Shown: positions 3,108 through 14,655, counted from the first letter of the stretch. The stretch: 29,524 nucleotides of DNA from a virus (IMGVR_UViG_2693429557_000011); one strand, 5' to 3'. Notes: generated from the sequence alone by a model not told the origin. Numbers and translations are program-made.

Positions 3108-3662
3108 TCAGCCAACAAATTTAGCAACAAATACAGCAACCGCCGCTGTGAAAATGGTTGTGCACACTGGCACAATAATGCCACTCCAACGCCACTTCGT
3201 ATTATCATCAACCTTGTCAAACCGCCGATTCATCTCATCCATAATCTTGTCAAAGCGTTTATCCATCGCTTCGGTAAGCTCACCCTTCAGGCTGTTAATG
3301 TCTGATTTGAGCTGCTCTTTCAGGTTAGCTGTATCAGATTTAAGCTCACCTTTCAGATTCGCAATATCGCATTCAAGATCACCTTTCAGATGTGCTATGT
3401 CTGCTTTGAGTTCACCTTTCACCTCACCAACATCGGCTTTAGTTGAGAGGTTTGTAGTGCGTTCAGCAAGCGTCGCAAGGTCGTTTCTTGTTAGCGATAA
3501 ATCACCTTCGAGCCGCTCAATTCGCCTTTCAAGTTTATCTGACATTCCGCCTCCACTACTGCCGCCATCGCCACCATGATAAAGCACATCACGCTCAGAA
3601 TGCGACACACTACCTGCTGAATTACCGAAAAGATTTCTTGCTACATTACCCATTATCACCAT
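3108..3662 (-). CDS. Coiled-coil protein with five tandem 11-residue repeats and a C-terminal transmembrane anchor (XhlA-like architecture, function unknown)
   Basis: 184-aa ORF with a Gly/Ser-rich N-terminus, repeats LKGELKADIAH / LKGDLECDIAN / LKGELKSDTAN / LKEQLKSDINS / LKGELTEAMDK, and a C-terminal hydrophobic segment IIVPVCTTIFTAAVAVFVAKFV; its start overlaps the stop of the upstream gene (translational coupling). The antisense plus-strand ORF is a low-complexity Ser-rich artefact. Confidence 0.6.
   Translation of the reverse strand: MVIMGNVARNLFGNSAGSVSHSERDVLYHGGDGGSSGGGMSDKLERRIERLEGDLSLTRNDLATLAERTTNLSTKADVGEVKGELKADIAHLKGDLECDIANLKGELKSDTANLKEQLKSDINSLKGELTEAMDKRFDKIMDEMNRRFDKVDDNTKWRWSGIIVPVCTTIFTAAVAVFVAKFVG
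3276..3440. repeat. 5 x 33-bp in-frame tandem repeat inside the coiled-coil gene
   Basis: Five consecutive 33-bp units (3276-3308, 3309-3341, 3342-3374, 3375-3407, 3408-3440) sharing the core CACCTTTCAG; they encode the 11-residue protein repeats. Confidence 0.8.
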
Positions 3663-4146
3663 CCTGCGCTTTGTCTTTCTCCAACCACTTCAGCACCGCA
3701 GACGTACGATAAAGGCTCAGGTAACCACAATTCAGGCAATGCAGCGTGTAATAAGTTTTGCGCATATCAGGTATGCTCTTAACATCACCCAAAAAAGCAT
3801 AAGATACATAATGCTTTATGTTCTCTTTAATTAACTCACTCTGTTCCTCCAGGGGTAGATTGTTAAAATTTTCTGGTTTCTTATTTTTATCCCAGCAAAG
3901 ATCCATACTTTCTGGAACAGATAATCGCGACGATCCACATGAAGGGCAGACACTGGAGACCCCCTTCTCAGACAAGAAACGGAAGAAGATTTCTGGCGTA
4001 ATCTCCATCAGCCGCTCTTTATGTTTTTTGACACGACTCATCGACTTCTTATTGATTTCATCAGCTTCTTCTTTGCATTTATCTTCTATATATTTCGATA
4101 GTAAATAGTCATATAACTCTTTTTTTGTAGGTTTTTTTATTTCCAT
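3646..4146 (-). CDS. Hypothetical zinc-ribbon protein (CxxC...CxxC), AT-rich cargo gene
   Basis: 166-aa ORF with CPSCGSS and CLNCGY pairs and a Lys/Glu-rich N-terminus; visibly AT-rich compared with the flanking phage backbone; begins 3 nt after the integrase stop on the same strand. Confidence 0.55.
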   Translation of the reverse strand: MEIKKPTKKELYDYLLSKYIEDKCKEEADEINKKSMSRVKKHKERLMEITPEIFFRFLSEKGVSSVCPSCGSSRLSVPESMDLCWDKNKKPENFNNLPLEEQSELIKENIKHYVSYAFLGDVKSIPDMRKTYYTLHCLNCGYLSLYRTSAVLKWLEKDKAQDGDNG

Positions 4147-4148
4147 AG

Positions 4149-5126
4149 TTACATTCCTCCCAAGGGATTAAACCTCACCGCATCCTGCAAGTAATCCGGC
4201 GCAAGATGGGCATAAATCATCGTTGTCTGAATCTTTGCGTGCCCCAGAATTTTCTGGAGCGTCAGAATATTGCCGCCGTTCATCATGAAATGACTGGCGA
4301 AGGTGTGGCGCAGCGCATGAACAGCCTGGCCGTCAGGAACATCAGGTGCGACCGTTTTGATGACATCGCGAACCAATGAATAATCCAGCGTCGGAAACAC
4401 CAGTTTCCCGCCCCGTTTTTTGATCTTTTCAAACAGGCTTTCAGAAATAGGAACGGTACGGTTTTTGCTGTTCTTCGTTTTTGAAAAAGTGATTCGACAA
4501 TGAAGAACACGGCGCTGCTCCAGTGCCGCTACCTCGCCCCATCGCGCCCCGGTCGACAGAAGGATTTCGACGGCCAGCCGTTCATCGGGATTTTCAGCCA
4601 GTGCATCCAGCAACTGAACACATTCAGACTTACTCAGATATCCCATTTCACGCTCGTTAACCTTCATTCCTTTAAGGCCTTGAACGGGGTTATCGTTAAG
4701 AAAATGGCCGGATGAGATGAGTGCGGTAAACATCGCGCTTAACGCCCCAATCTCTCGATTTATGGTGCTGGGCTGTATCCCCTGCTCTATCCTGGACACA
4801 CGTAGCTCGGTGAGCATCGTTGTATTAAGTTTATGCACGCACGGGTCATCCATTGCCTCACTCAAGCGCAGCAATTTAAGGCGCGTGTTATGCCCTGACT
4901 TCATTAGCTGGCCGTGGTATTTCCACCACAAGTCAATAAGCACTGACAGCGGACGGCGATCAATGGAGTTTCCTTTCCACTCATTGTTATGCTGTTGCGC
5001 CAGCACCCACCGCTCATATAAAACTGCATCCGATTTCGTTTTAAATTTTTTGCGAATGCGTTTGCCTTTACGCCCCTCAGGACGCATGTCAAGAAGATAC
5101 CCTCCCGGAATTGATTTTATGCTCAT
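4149..5126 (-). CDS. int: P2-type tyrosine integrase
   Basis: C-terminal catalytic box AVHALRHTFASHF ... LGHAKIQTTMIYAHL (R, H-x-x-R, Y) and overall similarity to P2 Int. Start taken at the internal Met (MSIKSIPGG...), which parallels the P2 Int N-terminus and avoids overlap with the C gene; the longer ORF to 5276 is less likely. Confidence 0.9.
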   Translation of the reverse strand: MSIKSIPGGYLLDMRPEGRKGKRIRKKFKTKSDAVLYERWVLAQQHNNEWKGNSIDRRPLSVLIDLWWKYHGQLMKSGHNTRLKLLRLSEAMDDPCVHKLNTTMLTELRVSRIEQGIQPSTINREIGALSAMFTALISSGHFLNDNPVQGLKGMKVNEREMGYLSKSECVQLLDALAENPDERLAVEILLSTGARWGEVAALEQRRVLHCRITFSKTKNSKNRTVPISESLFEKIKKRGGKLVFPTLDYSLVRDVIKTVAPDVPDGQAVHALRHTFASHFMMNGGNILTLQKILGHAKIQTTMIYAHLAPDYLQDAVRFNPLGGM

Positions 5127-5175
5127 TCGTGAAGCCCCAGCGTTACAAGACCACCATGCCCCCAGCGTTCCATGA

Positions 5176-5487
5176 TTAGCCGGGCTGTGTGCCAGTCTTG
5201 CGGGATTTTTGAGAAGACGATGTGTTTTCTGGCCCATCAGGGGAGAGAGAAGGACTGATCTGCCCAGCAGCCTCATTTGTTTCGTTACTCATCAACCACG
5301 TAGTGTATTTTTTAAATTCCGGGTGCATTGTGATTTTCAGTAAAACCTCCGTTCCCACACCTCGAATACCAGTCTCGTATTGCTTAACCGTACCAACCGC
5401 AATACCTATTGAATCCGCGAACTTTGCCTGACTAAGCCCCTCAGATTCTCGAATTGCTTTTAGCTTCTTTGATATCTCTATTGACAT
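5176..5487 (-). CDS. Immunity repressor, P2 C-like (XRE-type HTH)
   Basis: About 103 aa from the internal Met (MSIEISKKLKAIRESEGLSQAKFADSIGIAVGTVKQYETG), a classic helix-turn-helix; sits directly upstream of int on the same strand and faces the cox-like gene, as C does in P2. Confidence 0.75.
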   Translation of the reverse strand: MSIEISKKLKAIRESEGLSQAKFADSIGIAVGTVKQYETGIRGVGTEVLLKITMHPEFKKYTTWLMSNETNEAAGQISPSLSPDGPENTSSSQKSRKTGTQPG

Positions 5488-7921: not shown

Positions 7922-10744
7922 ATGACGGCAGAGTACATCAGGGACTGGCAACAACCGCGCCACGCAGTGGGGCGTGAAGGAACGGGGATCCCCGCTCCTG
8001 AATCCGCGCTTTCCTCCTGGCTGGATGCCCACCGGGCAGAGAACGAGCGCCGCCAGGAAATGGCTGATGCGGCGTTCTCCGCCACGCCACTGGGCAACCT
8101 GATTAATAAAAGCCTGGACGCACAGGAAAAACAGGACAAAACCATCACACTGGCAGGAGACGCCAGAAAACAGGCACGCGGCGCGGTGGATGAAGCCATG
8201 GCCTCGCTGCGCCTGCTGCCGTCCTATCTGCGCGATCCGCTTATTCGCCACCTCTCCTTCCTGCGCAAAAAACAGGAAGCCGATCGCCGGAAAGGCAAAA
8301 AGAGCTGGCAGGCGGAACGCTATGCACGCGGAACCCTGCGCAAAATATTCGAACGTCTGGATCGCACTGACGGACACTGGCTGACACCGGGTTATCGCTC
8401 CCTTGCCGGACGTGAACGCCTGGACGATTTGCTTTACCTGCCGCAACTCAACAAACACCAGATACAGACGCTGGCCACCATGACGGCGGCGATGTTCAGC
8501 AGCACCTTCGAAAAACTCTGCGATGGTTTTGGCGCGACTGATGGCGAGCTGACCATGGATGTAACGCTGAAGGCGTATCAGATGCTGGCCCGCATGGCGT
8601 TACACTTACACGCCATGCCTCCGCATTATGACGCACTGACAACAGACAAAGACCGGAGGCACGAACCGGACACAGAACTGCTGCCGGGCGCAATCCTTCG
8701 CCTGACCTGTGCGGAATGGTGGAAACGCAAACTGTGGCTGTTACGTTGCGAGTGGAGAGAAGAACAACTTCGCGCCGCCTGTCTGGTTTCCAGAAAAACA
8801 TCGCCCTATCTGAGCCAGGACGCGTTAAGCGAGTTTCGCGCACAGCGCGAGAAAACACGCGATTTCCTGAAAAGTTTCATGCTGGAAAATGAAGACGGGT
8901 TCACGATTGATCTCGAGACGGTGTATTACGCGGGAGTAAGTAACCCGGTTCACCGTAAGGCAGAAATGATGGCCACCATGAAGGGGCTGGAACTTCTGGC
9001 CGAAGCCCGTGGCGACAAAGCGGTGTTTCTGACTGTCACCTGCCCGTCAAAATACCACGCCACAACGGAGAACGGTCATCCGAATCCCAAATGGAACGGG
9101 GCCACAATGCGCGACTCCAGCGATTACCTGGTTAACACGTTTTTTGCGACGGTCCGCAAAAAACTGAACCGCGACGGCCTGCGCTGGTATGGCATCCGCA
9201 CGGCGGAGCCTCACCATGACGGCACCGTGCACTGGCATATGATGGTCTTTGCTCATCCGGAAGAAATCGACACCATTGTGTCCCACACCCGCGATATTGC
9301 CATTCAGGAAGATCGTCACGAGCTGGGCGATGACATAACTCCGCGCTTTAAGGCGGAGTATGTAGACGGCTCAAAAGGCACGCCAACCAGCTACATCGCC
9401 ACCTACATCGGGAAAAACCTGGACAGCCGCGCCGTGGATGGCATCGACCCGAAAACGGGCAAGCCACGCGTTGACCACGAAACCGGAAAATCAATGGCCG
9501 AGAGCGTGGAACGCGCCATCGGCTGGGCGCGCCTTCACCGGGTCCGCCAGTTCCAGTTCTTTGGCATCCCCTCCCGCCAGGTATGGCGTGAACTGCGCCG
9601 CCTTGCCAGCCAGATGGCACGCAACCCGGAAGGCCCGCAACGGCTGAAGGATGACGCAATGGATGCGGTTCTTGCCGCCGCTGATGCCGGATGTTTTGCC
9701 ACCTACATAGAGAAACAGGGCGGCGTACTTGTTCCACGCAAAGACTACCTGATTCGCACCGCCTACGACCTCGCCGATGAGCTGAACGATTACGGCGAAC
9801 AGAGCGTACAGATTTACGGGATCTGGTCACCACTCATCGGGGAATCCTCCCGTGTGTGCACGCATCCGGATAACTGGAAGCTGGTAAGACGCAAACCGGA
9901 AGCGGAAGACAGCGCCCGCGAAAATGGTTTTGACCTTCAGGGCGGCCCTGCCGCCCCTTGGACTCGTGGCAATAACTGTCCCCGTGTACAGGAAACGGAC
10001 AACAACGGGACAGAACAGCCGGAAGAACGGCCAGCACCGTGGCCGCAGCTCCCTGACGGCGTTGATGTGGATGAATGGATGCGCTCACTGAAACGGCACG
10101 AACGCCGGGCGCTGATGCGTTCGCTTCGTGACAAACAGGCAAAAAACAGCAGTGATGAAATGCAGAGCTGGACACAGAGCCGCAAACAGCAGCGGCCTTT
10201 GCCTGATAACCACGAATTACTCGCTAAAGAATGGCGGGAGTCTGCTGAATCTCTCGGCCTGCATATCGGTGAACAACAGATGCAGCACCTGTTACGGGGC
10301 GGCAGTCTGTACGTTGACGGCAGCATCATTGCACCGCAGGGATTTGAAATTGTACGCAAACCGGATACCCGCCCGGACAGCCGAATCACGCAGCTCTGGC
10401 AGCGCCTGAGCCGTAATCATGGCGTAAGCAGCACGGAGATCCGCCATAACCCGGTCGCCAGCTATCTGACACAGCTGGGGGCATCAGACCCTGAAGCCGC
10501 CGCACGCCTGGCATCCACACTTCAGCAGGACCAGAACACCATGAAAACACCCGTTACCGTGCTTTCTGACATGCTGCGCGCCATCCGCGACGCAGAGCAC
10601 GCACAGAGAATCAGTGAAACCACTGAACGCGCCCGCCGCAAAGCAGACCTGCTGCGGGGTGGCCTGACCAGTGGAAACAAAAAACAGACAGAAACGGGAC
10701 TCACGAATCCCGTAAATGAGCAAAAAACGCGCAGCGATATATGA
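7922..10744 (+). CDS. A: Rolling-circle replication initiator, P2 gpA-like HUH endonuclease, with a long low-complexity C-terminal extension
   Basis: 940-aa ORF with an HUH motif (HWHMMVFAH) and a downstream tyrosine motif (YIATYIGKN), as in P2/186 A proteins; the C-terminal ~300 residues are R/Q/E-rich and make it longer than the ~700-760 aa of classical A proteins. Confidence 0.85.
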   Translation: MTAEYIRDWQQPRHAVGREGTGIPAPESALSSWLDAHRAENERRQEMADAAFSATPLGNLINKSLDAQEKQDKTITLAGDARKQARGAVDEAMASLRLLPSYLRDPLIRHLSFLRKKQEADRRKGKKSWQAERYARGTLRKIFERLDRTDGHWLTPGYRSLAGRERLDDLLYLPQLNKHQIQTLATMTAAMFSSTFEKLCDGFGATDGELTMDVTLKAYQMLARMALHLHAMPPHYDALTTDKDRRHEPDTELLPGAILRLTCAEWWKRKLWLLRCEWREEQLRAACLVSRKTSPYLSQDALSEFRAQREKTRDFLKSFMLENEDGFTIDLETVYYAGVSNPVHRKAEMMATMKGLELLAEARGDKAVFLTVTCPSKYHATTENGHPNPKWNGATMRDSSDYLVNTFFATVRKKLNRDGLRWYGIRTAEPHHDGTVHWHMMVFAHPEEIDTIVSHTRDIAIQEDRHELGDDITPRFKAEYVDGSKGTPTSYIATYIGKNLDSRAVDGIDPKTGKPRVDHETGKSMAESVERAIGWARLHRVRQFQFFGIPSRQVWRELRRLASQMARNPEGPQRLKDDAMDAVLAAADAGCFATYIEKQGGVLVPRKDYLIRTAYDLADELNDYGEQSVQIYGIWSPLIGESSRVCTHPDNWKLVRRKPEAEDSARENGFDLQGGPAAPWTRGNNCPRVQETDNNGTEQPEERPAPWPQLPDGVDVDEWMRSLKRHERRALMRSLRDKQAKNSSDEMQSWTQSRKQQRPLPDNHELLAKEWRESAESLGLHIGEQQMQHLLRGGSLYVDGSIIAPQGFEIVRKPDTRPDSRITQLWQRLSRNHGVSSTEIRHNPVASYLTQLGASDPEAAARLASTLQQDQNTMKTPVTVLSDMLRAIRDAEHAQRISETTERARRKADLLRGGLTSGNKKQTETGLTNPVNEQKTRSDI

Positions 10745-10789
10745 AGCGCGCACAAAACAGGCAAAAACGGGATTTCAGAATCCCGTAAA
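10681..10789. repeat. Two 36-bp direct repeats, each with an internal 5-bp-stem hairpin (CGGGA...TCCCG); candidate parC-like centromere or origin element
   Basis: Copy 1 at 10681-10716 and copy 2 at 10754-10789 (about 80% identical), spanning the end of gene A and the leader of the ParM-like gene. Confidence 0.5.
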
Positions 10790-10820
10790 CGATTAATTAA
10801 TCAACATAAGGAAAAGCGAC

Positions 10821-11780
10821 ATGAAAATTTGTATCGACGACGGCTCCACCAACATCAAGCTGGCATGGACTGAGAACGGCGAACGCCGCAACGCCATCAG
10901 CCCGAACAGCTTCAAGTCGGAATGGTCTGCGCCGTTCGGTGGCATGCAGCCCGCGAACTACATGCTTGATGGCGTGCGCTATGGTTTTGATCCGGTCAGC
11001 GATCGCTTTGTCCAGACAACCGACACGCAATACCAGTACAGCGATGTAAATGTCATTGCCATTCATCACGCGCTGGTCAAATCAGGCATCACGCCACAGG
11101 AGGTGGATGTGGTTGTCACCCTGCCACTGAGCGAGTATTTCGACACAAACGCACAGCCGGACATGGCCAACATCAACCGCAAAAAAGCGAACGTTATGCG
11201 CCCGGTGGAGTACCAGAACGGCGAAGCATTCACTATCCGTAACGTGCGGGTTATGCCTGAATCCATTCCGGCTGGCTTTAAGGCACTGGCTGACATGAGT
11301 CCGTTTGAATCCCTGCTGATTGTGGATTTGGGCGGAACCACGCTGGATGTGGCAAAGGTTCAGGGGCAACTGGCAGGTATCAGCCAGGTGTTTTGCGATC
11401 CACACGTAGGCGTTTCTCTGATGGCCGATGCCGTACTGTCGGTGATGGCCACTAACGGTATGCGCACCAGTCACCACATCGCCAATACCATTATCGAACA
11501 TCGCCATGATGAAGCCTGGCTGCGCCAGCACATCCACAATGACGCGCATTACGCCAGCCTGATGGCGGTTATTCGTGAAAAGGAAGAAACACTGAAACAA
11601 CGCGTGATCCGCGCGCTGGCGGGTTTTTCGGGTTACGGGCGGGTGATGGTTGTCGGTGGAGGGGCGGAGATTGTGGCACCCGCTATCCGCGAAGCCTGCG
11701 GAGTTAATGCGACTTTCATCGCGGACGGGGTGCCACAGTTTGCTCTGGTTAATGGGCTGTACGCAATGGACAAGGAGTAA
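10821..11780 (+). CDS. parM: ParM/StbA-family actin-like segregation ATPase
   Basis: 319-aa ORF with N-terminal IDDGSTNIKL phosphate-1 motif, SPNSFK, YQYSDVNVIAIHHAL, PESIPAGF, LIVDLGGTTLD, VVGGGAE and a C-terminal LVNGLY; size and motif order match plasmid R1 ParM as recalled from memory. Confidence 0.8.
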   Translation: MKICIDDGSTNIKLAWTENGERRNAISPNSFKSEWSAPFGGMQPANYMLDGVRYGFDPVSDRFVQTTDTQYQYSDVNVIAIHHALVKSGITPQEVDVVVTLPLSEYFDTNAQPDMANINRKKANVMRPVEYQNGEAFTIRNVRVMPESIPAGFKALADMSPFESLLIVDLGGTTLDVAKVQGQLAGISQVFCDPHVGVSLMADAVLSVMATNGMRTSHHIANTIIEHRHDEAWLRQHIHNDAHYASLMAVIREKEETLKQRVIRALAGFSGYGRVMVVGGGAEIVAPAIREACGVNATFIADGVPQFALVNGLYAMDKE

Positions 11781-11784
11781 ACCA

Positions 11785-12096
11785 ATGACGACACCAACCA
11801 GACGGATAAGTTTCTATCTGAAGCCTGCGGCCGTCAAGAACGAAAGCGAAGCATGCGCCTGGCTGGGCAGCCTTACACCAGAAGCCCGCAAAAGCGGCCA
11901 ACGCGTGGCTTTTCTGGCCGGGCTGGCACTTCTGAAAATGAATCCAGCAGAGGCTTACCGACTGGCTGCATGGGCTGACGATGAGGCGTTATCGGTGACA
12001 CAAACCAGGACAGAACGCCCCGTGCCACAGCCAGTACCAACCGCACAGATAACCAGTCAGATAGCAGGGAATATCCGGGCATTATTTCCTGAATGA
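11785..12096 (+). CDS. parR: ParR-like centromere-binding adaptor (putative)
   Basis: 103 aa from the ATG 4 nt after the parM stop; RRISFYLKP and AFLAGLALL segments and a C-terminal IRALFP resemble R1 ParR (RRTIAFKLNP / ALTAGLAL / LRSLFP) as recalled. The longer upstream ORF start at 11650 lies inside parM and is rejected. Confidence 0.55.
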   Translation: MTTPTRRISFYLKPAAVKNESEACAWLGSLTPEARKSGQRVAFLAGLALLKMNPAEAYRLAAWADDEALSVTQTRTERPVPQPVPTAQITSQIAGNIRALFPE

Positions 12097-12156
12097 CGAA
12101 TTTGACGGCTTTTAATTTTATCGGGGTGCACTGTCGCCCCGCACGAGGAAAACACG

Positions 12157-12681
12157 ATGAAAAAATACGAATACATGCTAATGAAAGAAGCACTGCGGGC
12201 TGGTCTGGCTCCCTGTCCTGTATCCGTAGAAGCTGTTGTTGGGAACACGATTTTCCGAACGCTGCGAAATCGCGTATCCGTGAAGATGGTTCACCAACCA
12301 CCCAAATCTACCAGCATGATCTATCTGCCGCTGCCCGAGGCTATCAAACTTATGCGTTCGCTGAAATTTGCGATTTGGATGCAGACACAAATCAACAAAG
12401 CGGTGCAAAACACCTTCGTTAAGAGACTAATACCGGAGCTTGCTGCCAGATGTGCAAAATGTACCAGACCCGCACTTCAATTTGATCTGTCATTGATTCA
12501 ACAAGCTACGGAGGCAGAACTGTACCGCCTGTCACCTATCCGTGATGCTCACACGGAAGCATCAGAAATGTTCCGGCTCATGTTTCAATTTAATTTTGCC
12601 GTTCGACGCACACGCGTTCAGGTCAATCGCATGATGCAGGAGCAGGAAGAGTTAACACAGTACAAAGGGGGCAGCCAGTGA
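12157..12681 (+). CDS. Hypothetical protein (174 aa), accessory locus
   Basis: ATG with an upstream GAGG; no family recognised; stop overlaps the GTG start of the next ORF. Confidence 0.5.
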   Translation: MKKYEYMLMKEALRAGLAPCPVSVEAVVGNTIFRTLRNRVSVKMVHQPPKSTSMIYLPLPEAIKLMRSLKFAIWMQTQINKAVQNTFVKRLIPELAARCAKCTRPALQFDLSLIQQATEAELYRLSPIRDAHTEASEMFRLMFQFNFAVRRTRVQVNRMMQEQEELTQYKGGSQ

Positions 12682-12917
12682 GTAATTCAGCACGACTACA
12701 GCTTGGTTTTTCACCGCTATCAAAAACCATCGTATTGGCAAAAATGCGTGACTTAGGAGACGGAACAAAACGCCGCGTAGGAAATGATCGCGGTCGCGAT
12801 GTAACCAACGAGGCCGCTCAACTCGTTTGGCATCTAGTCATGGCAGAAGGCGGTGAAATTAATTGGGAGCTGGATGATGGTTCTCGTATGATTTTGAGGG
12901 CCGAGAAGAGTAAATAG
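12678..12917 (+). CDS. Hypothetical protein (79 aa), translationally coupled to the 174-aa gene
   Basis: GTG start overlapping the upstream TGA (GTGA); acidic C-terminal half; no family recognised. Confidence 0.4.
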   Translation: MSNSARLQLGFSPLSKTIVLAKMRDLGDGTKRRVGNDRGRDVTNEAAQLVWHLVMAEGGEINWELDDGSRMILRAEKSK

Positions 12918-12931
12918 CTCAAGGGGGATTA

Positions 12932-13117
12932 ATGCTAAATGATGATGAAGAAGAGCTGCTTATGCAGGAATGGTCGCTCGGTGATTATGATAATGGTGAA
13001 AATGGGTGCCCGCATTGTGGCCGTTATCGTTTATGTATCTGCCAGAATGGAAAACACAGATGTGAAAAGTGCAATTGGTCTCCGGAACTTAATGACTACG
13101 TGCCGATCGAGTGGTAG
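12932..13117 (+). CDS. Small Cys-rich zinc-binding-like protein (61 aa)
   Basis: Six cysteines in CPHC-x5-CxC-x6-CxxC spacing and an acidic N-terminus; not similar to the Ogr zinc finger as recalled. Confidence 0.45.
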   Translation: MLNDDEEELLMQEWSLGDYDNGENGCPHCGRYRLCICQNGKHRCEKCNWSPELNDYVPIEW

Positions 13118-13608
13118 AGGTAAGTCACACTAGGTGTTTTTTAGTTGATTTTATAAATGCACAATAGTGCACAAATTTGCACAATTTTTTTGAACGACTT
13201 TTTGCCCTTCCGGCCCGCGTGGCGGCTGGATCCGTCAAGGATCCGTGCATGCACAAAAAAACGCGTTTTTTCTGCGCGCAGGTGACGGGGGAACAGCCCG
13301 CGTTTCAGGGGGTAAATAGCATTCCCTGAACGATGTCGCAGAGATACAACAGAATGGCTGTATTTCTCACGCTGAGCGTGAAAAAGACGTGAGGGCTTTT
13401 GATTTGATGGGGTGAAAGGTAAGGCCGTCAAAATCGCACTGAGACGGCGAGAATATGCAGTCAACGAGGTGGGATTGCGTAAGAGTCTGACTGTCGATGA
13501 TGGCAATCAGCAGGAAAGCGTCGTGAAATTATCTGACTGATACAGGAGCTGGAGAGTCGGGGCATAAATTTTTTATGCCCCGGCGAAGCAGCAGACAAGC
13601 GAAGCGCG
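13118..13608. other. Non-coding cos-proximal region downstream of Q (probable packaging/cos region) with phased repeats and a palindrome
   Basis: In P2 the cos site lies just beyond the 3-prime end of Q. Here TGCACAA occurs at 13158, 13168 and 13178 (10-bp phasing), GGATCCGT at 13228 and 13239, and an A7-CGCG-T6 palindrome at 13255-13271. No convincing ORF; the minus-strand ORF 13141-13506 lacks coding character. Confidence 0.4.
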
Positions 13609-14655
13609 TCAGGATGTGGGCTGGGTGTCTAACAGTGCGTAAGGGTTAAAGCGGATCACCTCTTCGCCAAGCCAGTCATTGATGTGCTTCATGGCCTCCA
13701 TGACGGGCATCAGCTCGTTAATTGCGTAAACCCGCGCGGCCTTCTCCACATCACCAAACGCACTTTTTTCGCCCGGCATCGCCCCCATCAGTTGCGGCGG
13801 AACGCGGTGCGCAGCCAGCACATCATCACGGGATGCCGCCTTAACATTCATGAACTCATCCTTTGCGGTGATCTGCTGGAACGGCAAAATTTGCACCCCC
13901 TCTTTGCCCCCGTTGGGCGCATGAATGAGCACGTTTTTAAACGCACCACCACCACGTGCCCCCTGTAGCGTTTCTTTCAGGGAGTCCATGCTTTCGCGGT
14001 TTACCTGCGCTGCACCGATGTAGATGATGCACCCGGCGTGGGATCCGTTGTCGTAGTACAGTTTTCTGAACATGTCCGCCGAATGAGAAAGGCTGGCCGA
14101 GAGTAATGCGCCAAGATATTCCGGCATGCCGTAGATTTCCTGGTTAATATCCGGATTCATCAGGTGGCACACTTTGCCAGGACGAAACTGAAACGCATCC
14201 TTGCCATCCTGCACATACCACCATGATTCAAGATCGCTTCCGCGTCGCATGTATTTCGCCAGGGCGTGCCGTAATTTAAGCGGTTCGCCGAGCATATTGC
14301 TCCGAAGCTCAAGGAATGCGTTACCGAACACAAACCAGTCCAGCGCCAGCGCCGAGAAATCCTGCCGGGAAAGCAGCGGGTGCGGAATATAGCAGCCGAG
14401 CAATACATTGCGCTTAAAGTAAAGCGCAGACTGATGCCAGGACGTTTGCCGGGCAGCTCTTGCCAGACCGTACCAGTCCACCGGGGTTTCATACCACCGC
14501 CCGTTATCAGCACAGTACATATTGTCCAGCAGGTCATGCCCGGTCAGGCGGTAAGGACCATCAAATGTGAATGCACTGAGCGACGATTCTTTCCTGAGCG
14601 CATCAGCGAGATCAATGCGTGAACTCATGCGCACTTTTTTATTTTTTCTGCTCAT
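13609..14655 (-). CDS. Q: Portal protein (P2 gpQ-like)
   Basis: 348-aa ORF, size and position as P2 Q, directly downstream of and overlapping the terminase gene on the same strand. Confidence 0.9.
   Translation of the reverse strand: MSRKNKKVRMSSRIDLADALRKESSLSAFTFDGPYRLTGHDLLDNMYCADNGRWYETPVDWYGLARAARQTSWHQSALYFKRNVLLGCYIPHPLLSRQDFSALALDWFVFGNAFLELRSNMLGEPLKLRHALAKYMRRGSDLESWWYVQDGKDAFQFRPGKVCHLMNPDINQEIYGMPEYLGALLSASLSHSADMFRKLYYDNGSHAGCIIYIGAAQVNRESMDSLKETLQGARGGGAFKNVLIHAPNGGKEGVQILPFQQITAKDEFMNVKAASRDDVLAAHRVPPQLMGAMPGEKSAFGDVEKAARVYAINELMPVMEAMKHINDWLGEEVIRFNPYALLDTQPTS

Follow-up and report, generated by a model that had tools for sequence, protein, structure and literature searches.

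The partition system of plasmids R1 and NR1, ParMRC (StbA/StbB/parC), has the order repeats-parM-parR, and its parC site consists of 2 × 5 direct 11-bp iterons. A type II partition locus, srpMRC, has also been described for the SXT/R391 integrative and conjugative elements (ICEs), in which it is strictly conserved, is expressed on induction only, and stabilizes the element (Carraro et al. 2015, PMC4489591). The excised SXT/R391 circle replicates through a rolling-circle initiator (PMC4489591). In the Corynebacterium prophage CGP3, AlpA/AlpC (AlpAC) comprises an actin-like ATPase and a co-transcribed adaptor that binds its own upstream repeats (Donovan et al. 2015, PMC4446434). AlpAC is induced early after excision and tethers filaments to the phage DNA circles, and efficient replication depends on it (PMC4446434). 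Here, we analyzed a cassette of two repeats, parM, and parR, which stands beside the replication gene gpA in a P2-like prophage. The prophage lies in IMGVR_UViG_2693429557_000011, a stretch of 29,524 nucleotides (nt) that is hereafter called the window and to which all coordinates refer. The cassette and gpA are laid out as follows.

7922–10744, plus strand: gpA, rolling-circle replication endonuclease of 940 amino acids (aa) (Pfam PF05840 Phage_GPA, E-value 6.6e-131).
10678–10719, plus strand: parC-like repeat 1, 42 nt, within the last gpA codons; dyad ACGGGACTCACGAATCCCGT at 10694–10713.
10751–10792, plus strand: parC-like repeat 2, 42 nt; perfect 8-bp-arm dyad ACGGGATT-TCAG-AATCCCGT at 10767–10786.
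10821–11780, plus strand: parM, actin-fold ATPase of the R1 ParM/StbA family, 319 aa; ATG start, with AAGGA 8–9 nt upstream.
11785–12096, plus strand: parR, centromere-binding adaptor (by homology), 103 aa; ATG 4 nt past the parM TAA.

We consider it rather probable that this cassette is an intact type II ParMRC module, fixed in the replication region of P88-like phages and of a broader group of P2-like ones, which acts on the circular extrachromosomal phage genome. The ATPase was identified by several searches. ParM matched the Pfam families PF06406 (StbA_N, E 2.7e-82) and PF21523 (the ParM C-terminal family, E 1.3e-68), as well as chain 1mwk of R1 ParM in the Protein Data Bank (PDB) (phmmer E 8.5e-93), and it was 46.5% identical to plasmid R1 ParM over the full length. 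The AlphaFold2 (AF2) model of ParM had a predicted local distance difference test (pLDDT) score of 91.4, and its top PDB fold match by Foldseek was 4a62_A, which is R1 ParM with a ParR peptide (template modeling (TM) score 0.96, root-mean-square deviation 1.4 Å); the two proteins thus share the same fold. The nucleotide-binding motifs, namely phosphate-1 (DDGSTNIK), PES, phosphate-2 (DLGGTTLD), and GGGA, were invariant. In NCBIfam, only sub-threshold matches were found for ParM and none for ParR. The parM open reading frame (ORF) was intact in 86 of 86 copies, that is, in the window and in 85 related loci (80 from IMG/VR, P88, one plasmid record, and three genome representatives). Pairwise Nei-Gojobori estimates of the ratio of nonsynonymous to synonymous substitution (dN/dS) were 0.052 for parM, 0.118 for gpA (from its 5′ 1800 nt), and 0.30 for parR, and parM is under strong purifying selection, stronger than that on gpA.

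The downstream gene, which is preceded by AAGGAG overlapping the parM 3′ end, encodes a protein that matched Pfam PF10784 (Plasmid_stab_B, E 2e-23) and the PHROGs family phrog_2515. ParR is composed of an N-terminal ribbon-helix-helix-type segment (RRISFYLKP...), a variable linker, and a conserved C-terminal tail, NIRALFPE. We aligned it with the ParRs of R1, IncF, and IncK plasmids, of the phage-plasmid D6, and of four other prophages. The N-terminal R-R-I-S-F-Y-L-x-P segment and the helices following it were common to all aligned ParRs, and the tail motif [RK]-x-N-A/I-x-x-L/M-F was common to the R1, IncF, IncK, D6, and other-prophage proteins. R1 ParR, a member of this Pfam family, likewise has an N-terminal R-R-x-I-x-F and a C-terminal N-A/I-x-x-L tail; however, it has 116 aa and is only ~25% identical to the window ParR. 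The P88-type ParR is shorter in that ~12 residues after the core domain are absent. A search of ParR against PDB sequences gave no match even at E-values up to 10, and the AF2 monomer model (pLDDT 54) placed a C-terminal helix at residues 87–100.

The strongest direct repeat of the region was a 42-nt pair, 81% identical and 73 nt apart. Each repeat contains a dyad ACGGGA-N8-TCCCGT (GGG-N10-CCC), which had two matches in the window compared to none in 100 shuffles, and the dyads sit at −127 and −54 from the parM ATG, with their GGG-N10-CCC parts at −125 and −52. The left halves of the repeats are A/C-rich 11-mers (CAAAAAACAGA, CAGAAACGGGA, CACAAAACAGG, and CAAAAACGGGA, the first two of which precede the repeat 1 dyad), resembling the CAAAAAC-type iterons of R1 parC. 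Most copies in the 85 loci retained the dyad core CGGGATT-N4-AATCCCG, and changes fell mainly in the spacer. The layout was shared by prophages of Plesiomonas and Hafnia, whose GGG-N10-CCC dyads lie at −131/−59 and −128/−55 from the parM ATG, respectively; the spacing was 72–73 nt in the window and in both of these, and their ParMs are only 62–63% and their gpAs 33–55% identical to those of the window. In Serratia and Enterobacter prophages, GGGAAC-type sequences were found upstream of parM as a longer inverted repeat. We infer that the two repeats form a parC-like site, a candidate centromere.

These results bear out the sequence observations of the original prediction for this DNA, which had recognized a 319-aa ORF with actin-fold ParM/StbA motifs and, 4 nt downstream, a 103-aa ORF with ParR-like N-terminal and C-terminal segments. 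The profile searches and the structural comparison with R1 that it had proposed confirmed ParM through both Pfam and fold, and ParR through Pfam only. A complete ParM/ParR cassette with repeats where a centromere would sit is likewise borne out by the R1-type proteins and the non-random dyads. The repeat pair itself is real, but it is 42 rather than 36 nt long, and repeat 1 lies inside the gpA 3′ end rather than between the genes.

The final gpA codons overlap repeat 1. Among the tblastn matches listed, the gpAs of Fels-2, 186, L-413C, and others aligned up to residues ~690–860 of the 940-aa window gpA. Since these matches stop there, the last ~140–250 residues look like a lineage-specific C-terminal extension. 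A presumed P2 ori nick sequence had no match in the window when up to three mismatches were allowed.

When compared with R1, the upstream regions are alike in being A/C-rich, in having CAAAAAC-like 11-mers, and in a similar CATAAGGA ribosome-binding context. However, the R1 system is carried by a plasmid, whereas the phage cassette rides on an integrating P2-like phage beside gpA, and its two dyad-containing 42-nt repeats, one inside a coding region, differ from the direct iterons of parC. The StbA of D6, a P1-like phage-plasmid, is 47–48% identical, is followed by StbB, and was the only other R1-type ParM among 50,697 phage records; a note in the D6 record mentions similarity to the phage P88 StbA protein. 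D6 is a plasmid prophage, for which a partition system is expected, whereas P88-like phages integrate. The closest functional analogue of the proposed phage role is srpMRC. The phage proteins are close members of the R1 family, to which SrpM/SrpR have only a distant relationship, and the carrier is a conjugative element in one case and a virus in the other; the function has been demonstrated for srpMRC, and we infer it for the phage. AlpAC differs in belonging to a distant actin-like family, in its Gram-positive host, and in having the adaptor gene upstream of the ATPase gene. No sequence relationship between AlpA/AlpC and the phage ParM/ParR was detected in the searches made.

The genomic setting of the cassette was then considered with the following flanking features.

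30–2915: host genes (NlpC/P60, ABC ATPase, glutathione peroxidase, FecCD permease), left of the integrase.
4149–5276: integrase gene, adjoining host genes on the left.
12097–13608: variable cargo region, outside the partition cassette, with three plus-strand ORFs.
12157–12681, plus strand: orf174, recurring in 8 of 85 loci.
12678–12917, plus strand: DUF7446 gene, recurring in 3 of 85 loci.
12932–13117, plus strand: zinc-ribbon ORF, 61 aa, recurring in 3 of 85 loci.
13609–14655, minus strand: portal gene Q, right border of the gpA-Q interval.

Judged by sequence similarity, the window prophage is P88-like (Xuanwuvirus, Peduoviridae), a P2-type Escherichia coli phage. DNA identity over the cassette was 97–98% to P88, PhiR44_2, and P884B11, in which the genes from gpA to the end of the structural block follow one another as in the window. 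A 1.6-kb region was 95–98% identical to Escherichia phage P88, Xuanwuvirus P884B11, Citrobacter phage phiSM, and others, giving 14 phage records in total. The host genes and the integrase support chromosomal integration on the left side, as had been predicted for a P2-like prophage, and the right prophage end lies outside the window. In strain EA2, the same phage type adjoins pheA, with another integrase.

The order gpA-parM-parR was fixed in all 85 related loci, where ParM was 98.7–100% and gpA 72–100% identical, and the distance from the end of gpA to parM was ~80 nt in nearly all of those having gpA. In contrast, parR and the portal gene lay 995 to 4174 bp apart. Because gpA-parM-parR is fixed while the parR-portal interval varies, the variable hotspot begins after parR. 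Thus, parMR is lineage core of P88-like phages, though it is not core to all P2-like phages. The original prediction had placed the cassette at the tin/old accessory position, as a segregation machine swapped in or added at a variable locus. Its location between gpA and Q stands, but its presence is invariant, neither of its proteins had a PADLOC match, and the variability starts only downstream; a survey of the A-to-Q interval, suggested as a way to see whether the cassette is rare, found it conserved throughout the P88-like loci. Conserved core instead of cargo, which the prediction had named as contrary to its proposal, is therefore what was found for this lineage, but not for P2-like phages as a whole.

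Two side observations concern the modules around parM. Ten P88-like loci (L003, L030, L041, L044, L047, L050, L057, L061, L071, and L088) have a portal protein only ~30% identical, with the same gpA-parM-parR block, so that a different head module is joined to the same replication/partition module. In addition, parR has two deeply diverged alleles, which are ~84–100% and ~50–55% identical to that of the window, while the adjacent ParM is at least 98.7% identical throughout; DNA similarity to one phage group ends at ~11839, within parR. The first ~24 residues and the NIRALFPE tail are common to the two alleles, and the linker/core is ~52% identical between them. The diverged allele is mostly linked to the different portal module (30% identical). 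No association between parR allele and dyad sequence was found in the 85 loci, in which the same dyad variants occur with both alleles.

The combination of orf174, the DUF7446 gene, and the zinc-ribbon ORF recurred in 3 of the 85 loci and lies where P2-like phages keep defence genes. No family match for orf174 was found in Pfam, NCBIfam, PADLOC, or PHROGs. On the minus strand at 3108–4146, two further ORFs lie between host btu-like genes and the integrase. One of them, a 184-aa coiled-coil ORF, had weak PADLOC matches (E about 4e-5 to 3e-3) to the coiled-coil regions of LmuB/ZorA, and the other, of 166 aa, had a very weak DUF3800-like match. These ORFs may be cargo of a minor att-integrase hotspot, and the matches themselves are probably coiled-coil noise.

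The cassette is common. It was found in 1308 of 5426 complete E. coli genomes, with up to three copies per genome, and 1454 of its 1456 places were chromosomal, the other two being on plasmids. A genome-contig scan with a single protein returned only three near-identical species representatives. The 14 phage records label the genes as "plasmid segregation protein ParM" and "partition protein", and "partition protein" families exist in PHROGs for ParM and ParR alike. The cassette is thus an ordinary sequence feature, being annotated in RefSeq/GenBank, grouped in PHROGs, and very common. It is mentioned neither in the P88 paper nor in a 2026 survey of P2 hotspots, which took gpA and the portal gene as the borders of the main hotspot (PMC13586616). 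A 226-kb contig labelled Vagococcus sp., a Gram-positive (NZ_JBQPOM010000071.1), also contains a P88-like prophage with a ParM 98% identical to that of the window; contamination or mislabelling of the assembly is the most likely cause.

The next relatives of ParM in a large protein database were 54–63% identical and belonged to P2-like prophages of Plesiomonas, Hafnia, Serratia, and Enterobacter. In these four genera, parM lies between gpA and the portal gene; a Plasmid_stab_B gene comes next, and variable cargo (HicAB, KAP NTPase) after it. Plasmids or ICEs were the setting of ParM homologues at or below 52% identity. In the plasmid collection, at least 5000 records had a ParM homologue, at below 60% identity save for six records that contain a P88-like prophage, and the nearest plasmid ParM was at most ~52% identical among the matches listed, prophage-containing records aside. 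A neighbour-joining tree placed eight ParMs carried by prophages (of Escherichia, Plesiomonas, Hafnia, Serratia, and Enterobacter) in one clade with a bootstrap of 73/100. The identity of gpA does not follow that of ParM; for Hafnia, ParM is 62% and gpA 33% identical to the window. ParMR has therefore remained in P2-like phages through exchanges of the modules beside it. No sign of a recent plasmid origin was seen, given the distance to the nearest plasmid ParM. Nor is the cassette unusual by its occurrence, a point that the original prediction had left to a survey: it is found in nearly a quarter of the E. coli genomes, in 14 phage records and PHROGs, and with sister cassettes in four genera.

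Based on the likeness to R1, we propose the following mechanism. ParR dimers would bind the two dyad repeats, which straddle the gpA stop codon and whose dyads are 73 bp (~7 helical turns) apart. The ParR C-terminal tail would capture the ends of ParM-ATP filaments, and filament growth would drive the ParR-bound DNA molecules apart. The substrate would be the circular phage genome after infection or excision, copied by gpA through rolling-circle replication, because an integrated prophage needs no such system. The parMR genes would probably be expressed with the early/replication operon, i.e., while the genome is episomal. Co-expression with the replication gene is plausible because neither a plus-strand terminator nor a consensus promoter (sigma-70 scan) was found between gpA and parM, where only weak hand-picked hexamers lie between the repeats.

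Most likely, the cassette segregates or positions the circular phage genome after infection or excision. Two benefits may be considered. One is that a few circles would reach both daughter cells, so that the genome would not be lost before integration or after abortive excision, as for srpMRC. The other is a spatial organization of replicating circles in lytic growth, as for AlpAC. The benefit is likely one of these or both.

Several observations weigh against this proposal. Among 382 phage records with a gpA match, only the 14 P88-like ones have an R1-type ParM, and P2, 186, and most others have no ParMR; therefore, the function is not essential to the P2 life cycle. The repeats number only two, compared to the ten iterons of R1 parC, and they score as weak intrinsic terminators on the minus strand. 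The AF2 monomer model of ParR is poor, and the ribbon-helix-helix assignment rests on sequence. The proposed timing of expression is deduced from the lack of predicted signals. Finally, our literature search found no study analyzing the ParMR of P88 or P2-like phages, only mentions at the level of annotation.

Alternatively, P88-like phages might be kept for many generations as low-copy plasmids through ParMRC, which we regard as unlikely. This lifestyle would be in line with the related StbA/StbB pair of D6 (47% identical) and with one record, NZ_CP148288.1, in which a complete P88-like phage was deposited as a 34,461-bp circular "plasmid" of the cat isolate Z1323PEC0009. The record is 100% identical over 12 kb to a chromosomal prophage (NZ_CP148378.1) of the human isolate Z1323HEC0067, whose strain name is similar. 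It could be a true episome, or simply an induced or excised replicative form captured by the assembly. Among the matches listed from the E. coli collection, none belonged to Z1323PEC0009 itself. The distribution of the cassette argues against a stable plasmid state, since nearly all of its places in complete E. coli genomes are chromosomal and every full-length relative examined carries an integrase, at chromosomal sites that differ between relatives. Moreover, the phage-size plasmid records with P2-family capsid genes span many lineages, among them Arsenophonus, Zymomonas, Pseudomonas, and Enterobacter and are absent from the close ParM matches, whereas the P88 type is represented by one full-size record. 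No enrichment of episomal records among ParMR-positive P2-like phages was found in the plasmid collection. Of the episomal maintenance suggested in the original prediction, the stable phage-plasmid form is thus disfavored, and a transient episomal role is still the preferred interpretation. Plasmid records of 32–41 kb with P2-family capsid genes recur in Arsenophonus nasoniae, Zymomonas mobilis, Pseudomonas aeruginosa, Enterobacter soli, and Haematospirillum; these may represent phage-plasmids of P2-like type that have no bearing on ParMR.

A second explanation concerns the repeats alone, which might be RNA or transcription elements, either tandem minus-strand terminators shielding gpA from antisense transcription or plus-strand mRNA hairpins, with the ParR site elsewhere or absent. 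In the terminator scan, both repeats were terminator-like on the minus strand, with an 8-bp stem, a 4-nt loop, and a U-rich tail; their hairpin energies were −9 to −12.7 kcal/mol, and a common variant, AATCCCG to AATCCTG, retains G-U pairing on the plus strand. However, no minus-strand gene lies directly to the right, and a leftward transcript would have to cross parR and parM first. The U-rich tails are absent in Plesiomonas and Hafnia, whereas the dyad pair, its 72–73 nt spacing, and its distance to parM are kept. No Rfam family matched in 10300–13700, and the site directly upstream of parM corresponds to parC in R1. This explanation therefore appears improbable, to about the same degree as the stable plasmid state, and a parC-like site is preferred.

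Partition-mediated incompatibility is an established phenomenon among plasmids, and it would allow a third explanation, in which the prophage ParR/ParM, as a defence gene within the defence hotspot, disturbs how ParMRC plasmids or related phages that enter the cell are partitioned. The presence of up to three cassette copies per genome is compatible with such an incompatibility or exclusion device, as is its position next to the gpA-Q defence hotspot of P2-like phages (PMC13586616). In PADLOC, however, no match was found for ParM or ParR (E up to 0.1) or for the three downstream ORFs, and the cassette is invariant, unlike the rapidly exchanged cargo beside it. Cross-reaction with known plasmid centromeres is unlikely because ParR is so distant from R1 ParR and the repeats differ from the parC iterons. 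Purifying selection over the whole ATPase also suits a working motor better than a decoy. The exclusion device put forward in the original prediction is thus less probable than either of the explanations above, and we regard it as quite improbable. Lastly, the view that the cassette is a decaying or functionless relic of an old plasmid-phage recombination, which the lack of the cassette in P2, 186, and most other P2-like phages might suggest, is effectively refuted by the intact parM in all copies, its dN/dS of 0.05, below that of gpA, the invariance of all ATPase motifs, and the retention of the cassette across five genera.

We therefore return to an intact ParMRC module acting on the circular phage genome. 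A more far-reaching proposal can be advanced only tentatively and is, in our view, doubtful, namely that a clade of integrating P2-like phages uses its own ParMRC spindle on the circular monomer genomes arising from gpA replication, with a measurable effect on lysogenization, on prophage retention after abortive excision, or on burst size, and with a facultative plasmid state without an attachment site. This clade is found in about one quarter of complete E. coli genomes and also in Plesiomonas, Hafnia, Serratia, and Enterobacter. If true, the proposal would provide the first characterized cytoskeletal system that positions the DNA of a Gram-negative integrating tailed phage, and its centromere would be a minimal one of two dyads, partly embedded in a replication gene.

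For surveys of hotspots, the results mean that the gpA-Q "defence hotspot" should, in the P88-like lineage, be bounded from the end of parR and not from gpA. They also show an integrating phage lineage with a segregation motor of plasmid type, on which purifying selection is stronger than on the lineage's own replication initiator. If the reason for this were established functionally, two themes known from other elements would be extended to a very abundant family of enterobacterial prophages: the need of integrative elements for plasmid-like maintenance in their episomal phase, as in the SXT/R391 ICEs, and the organization of DNA by temperate phages with cytoskeletal filaments, as in CGP3.

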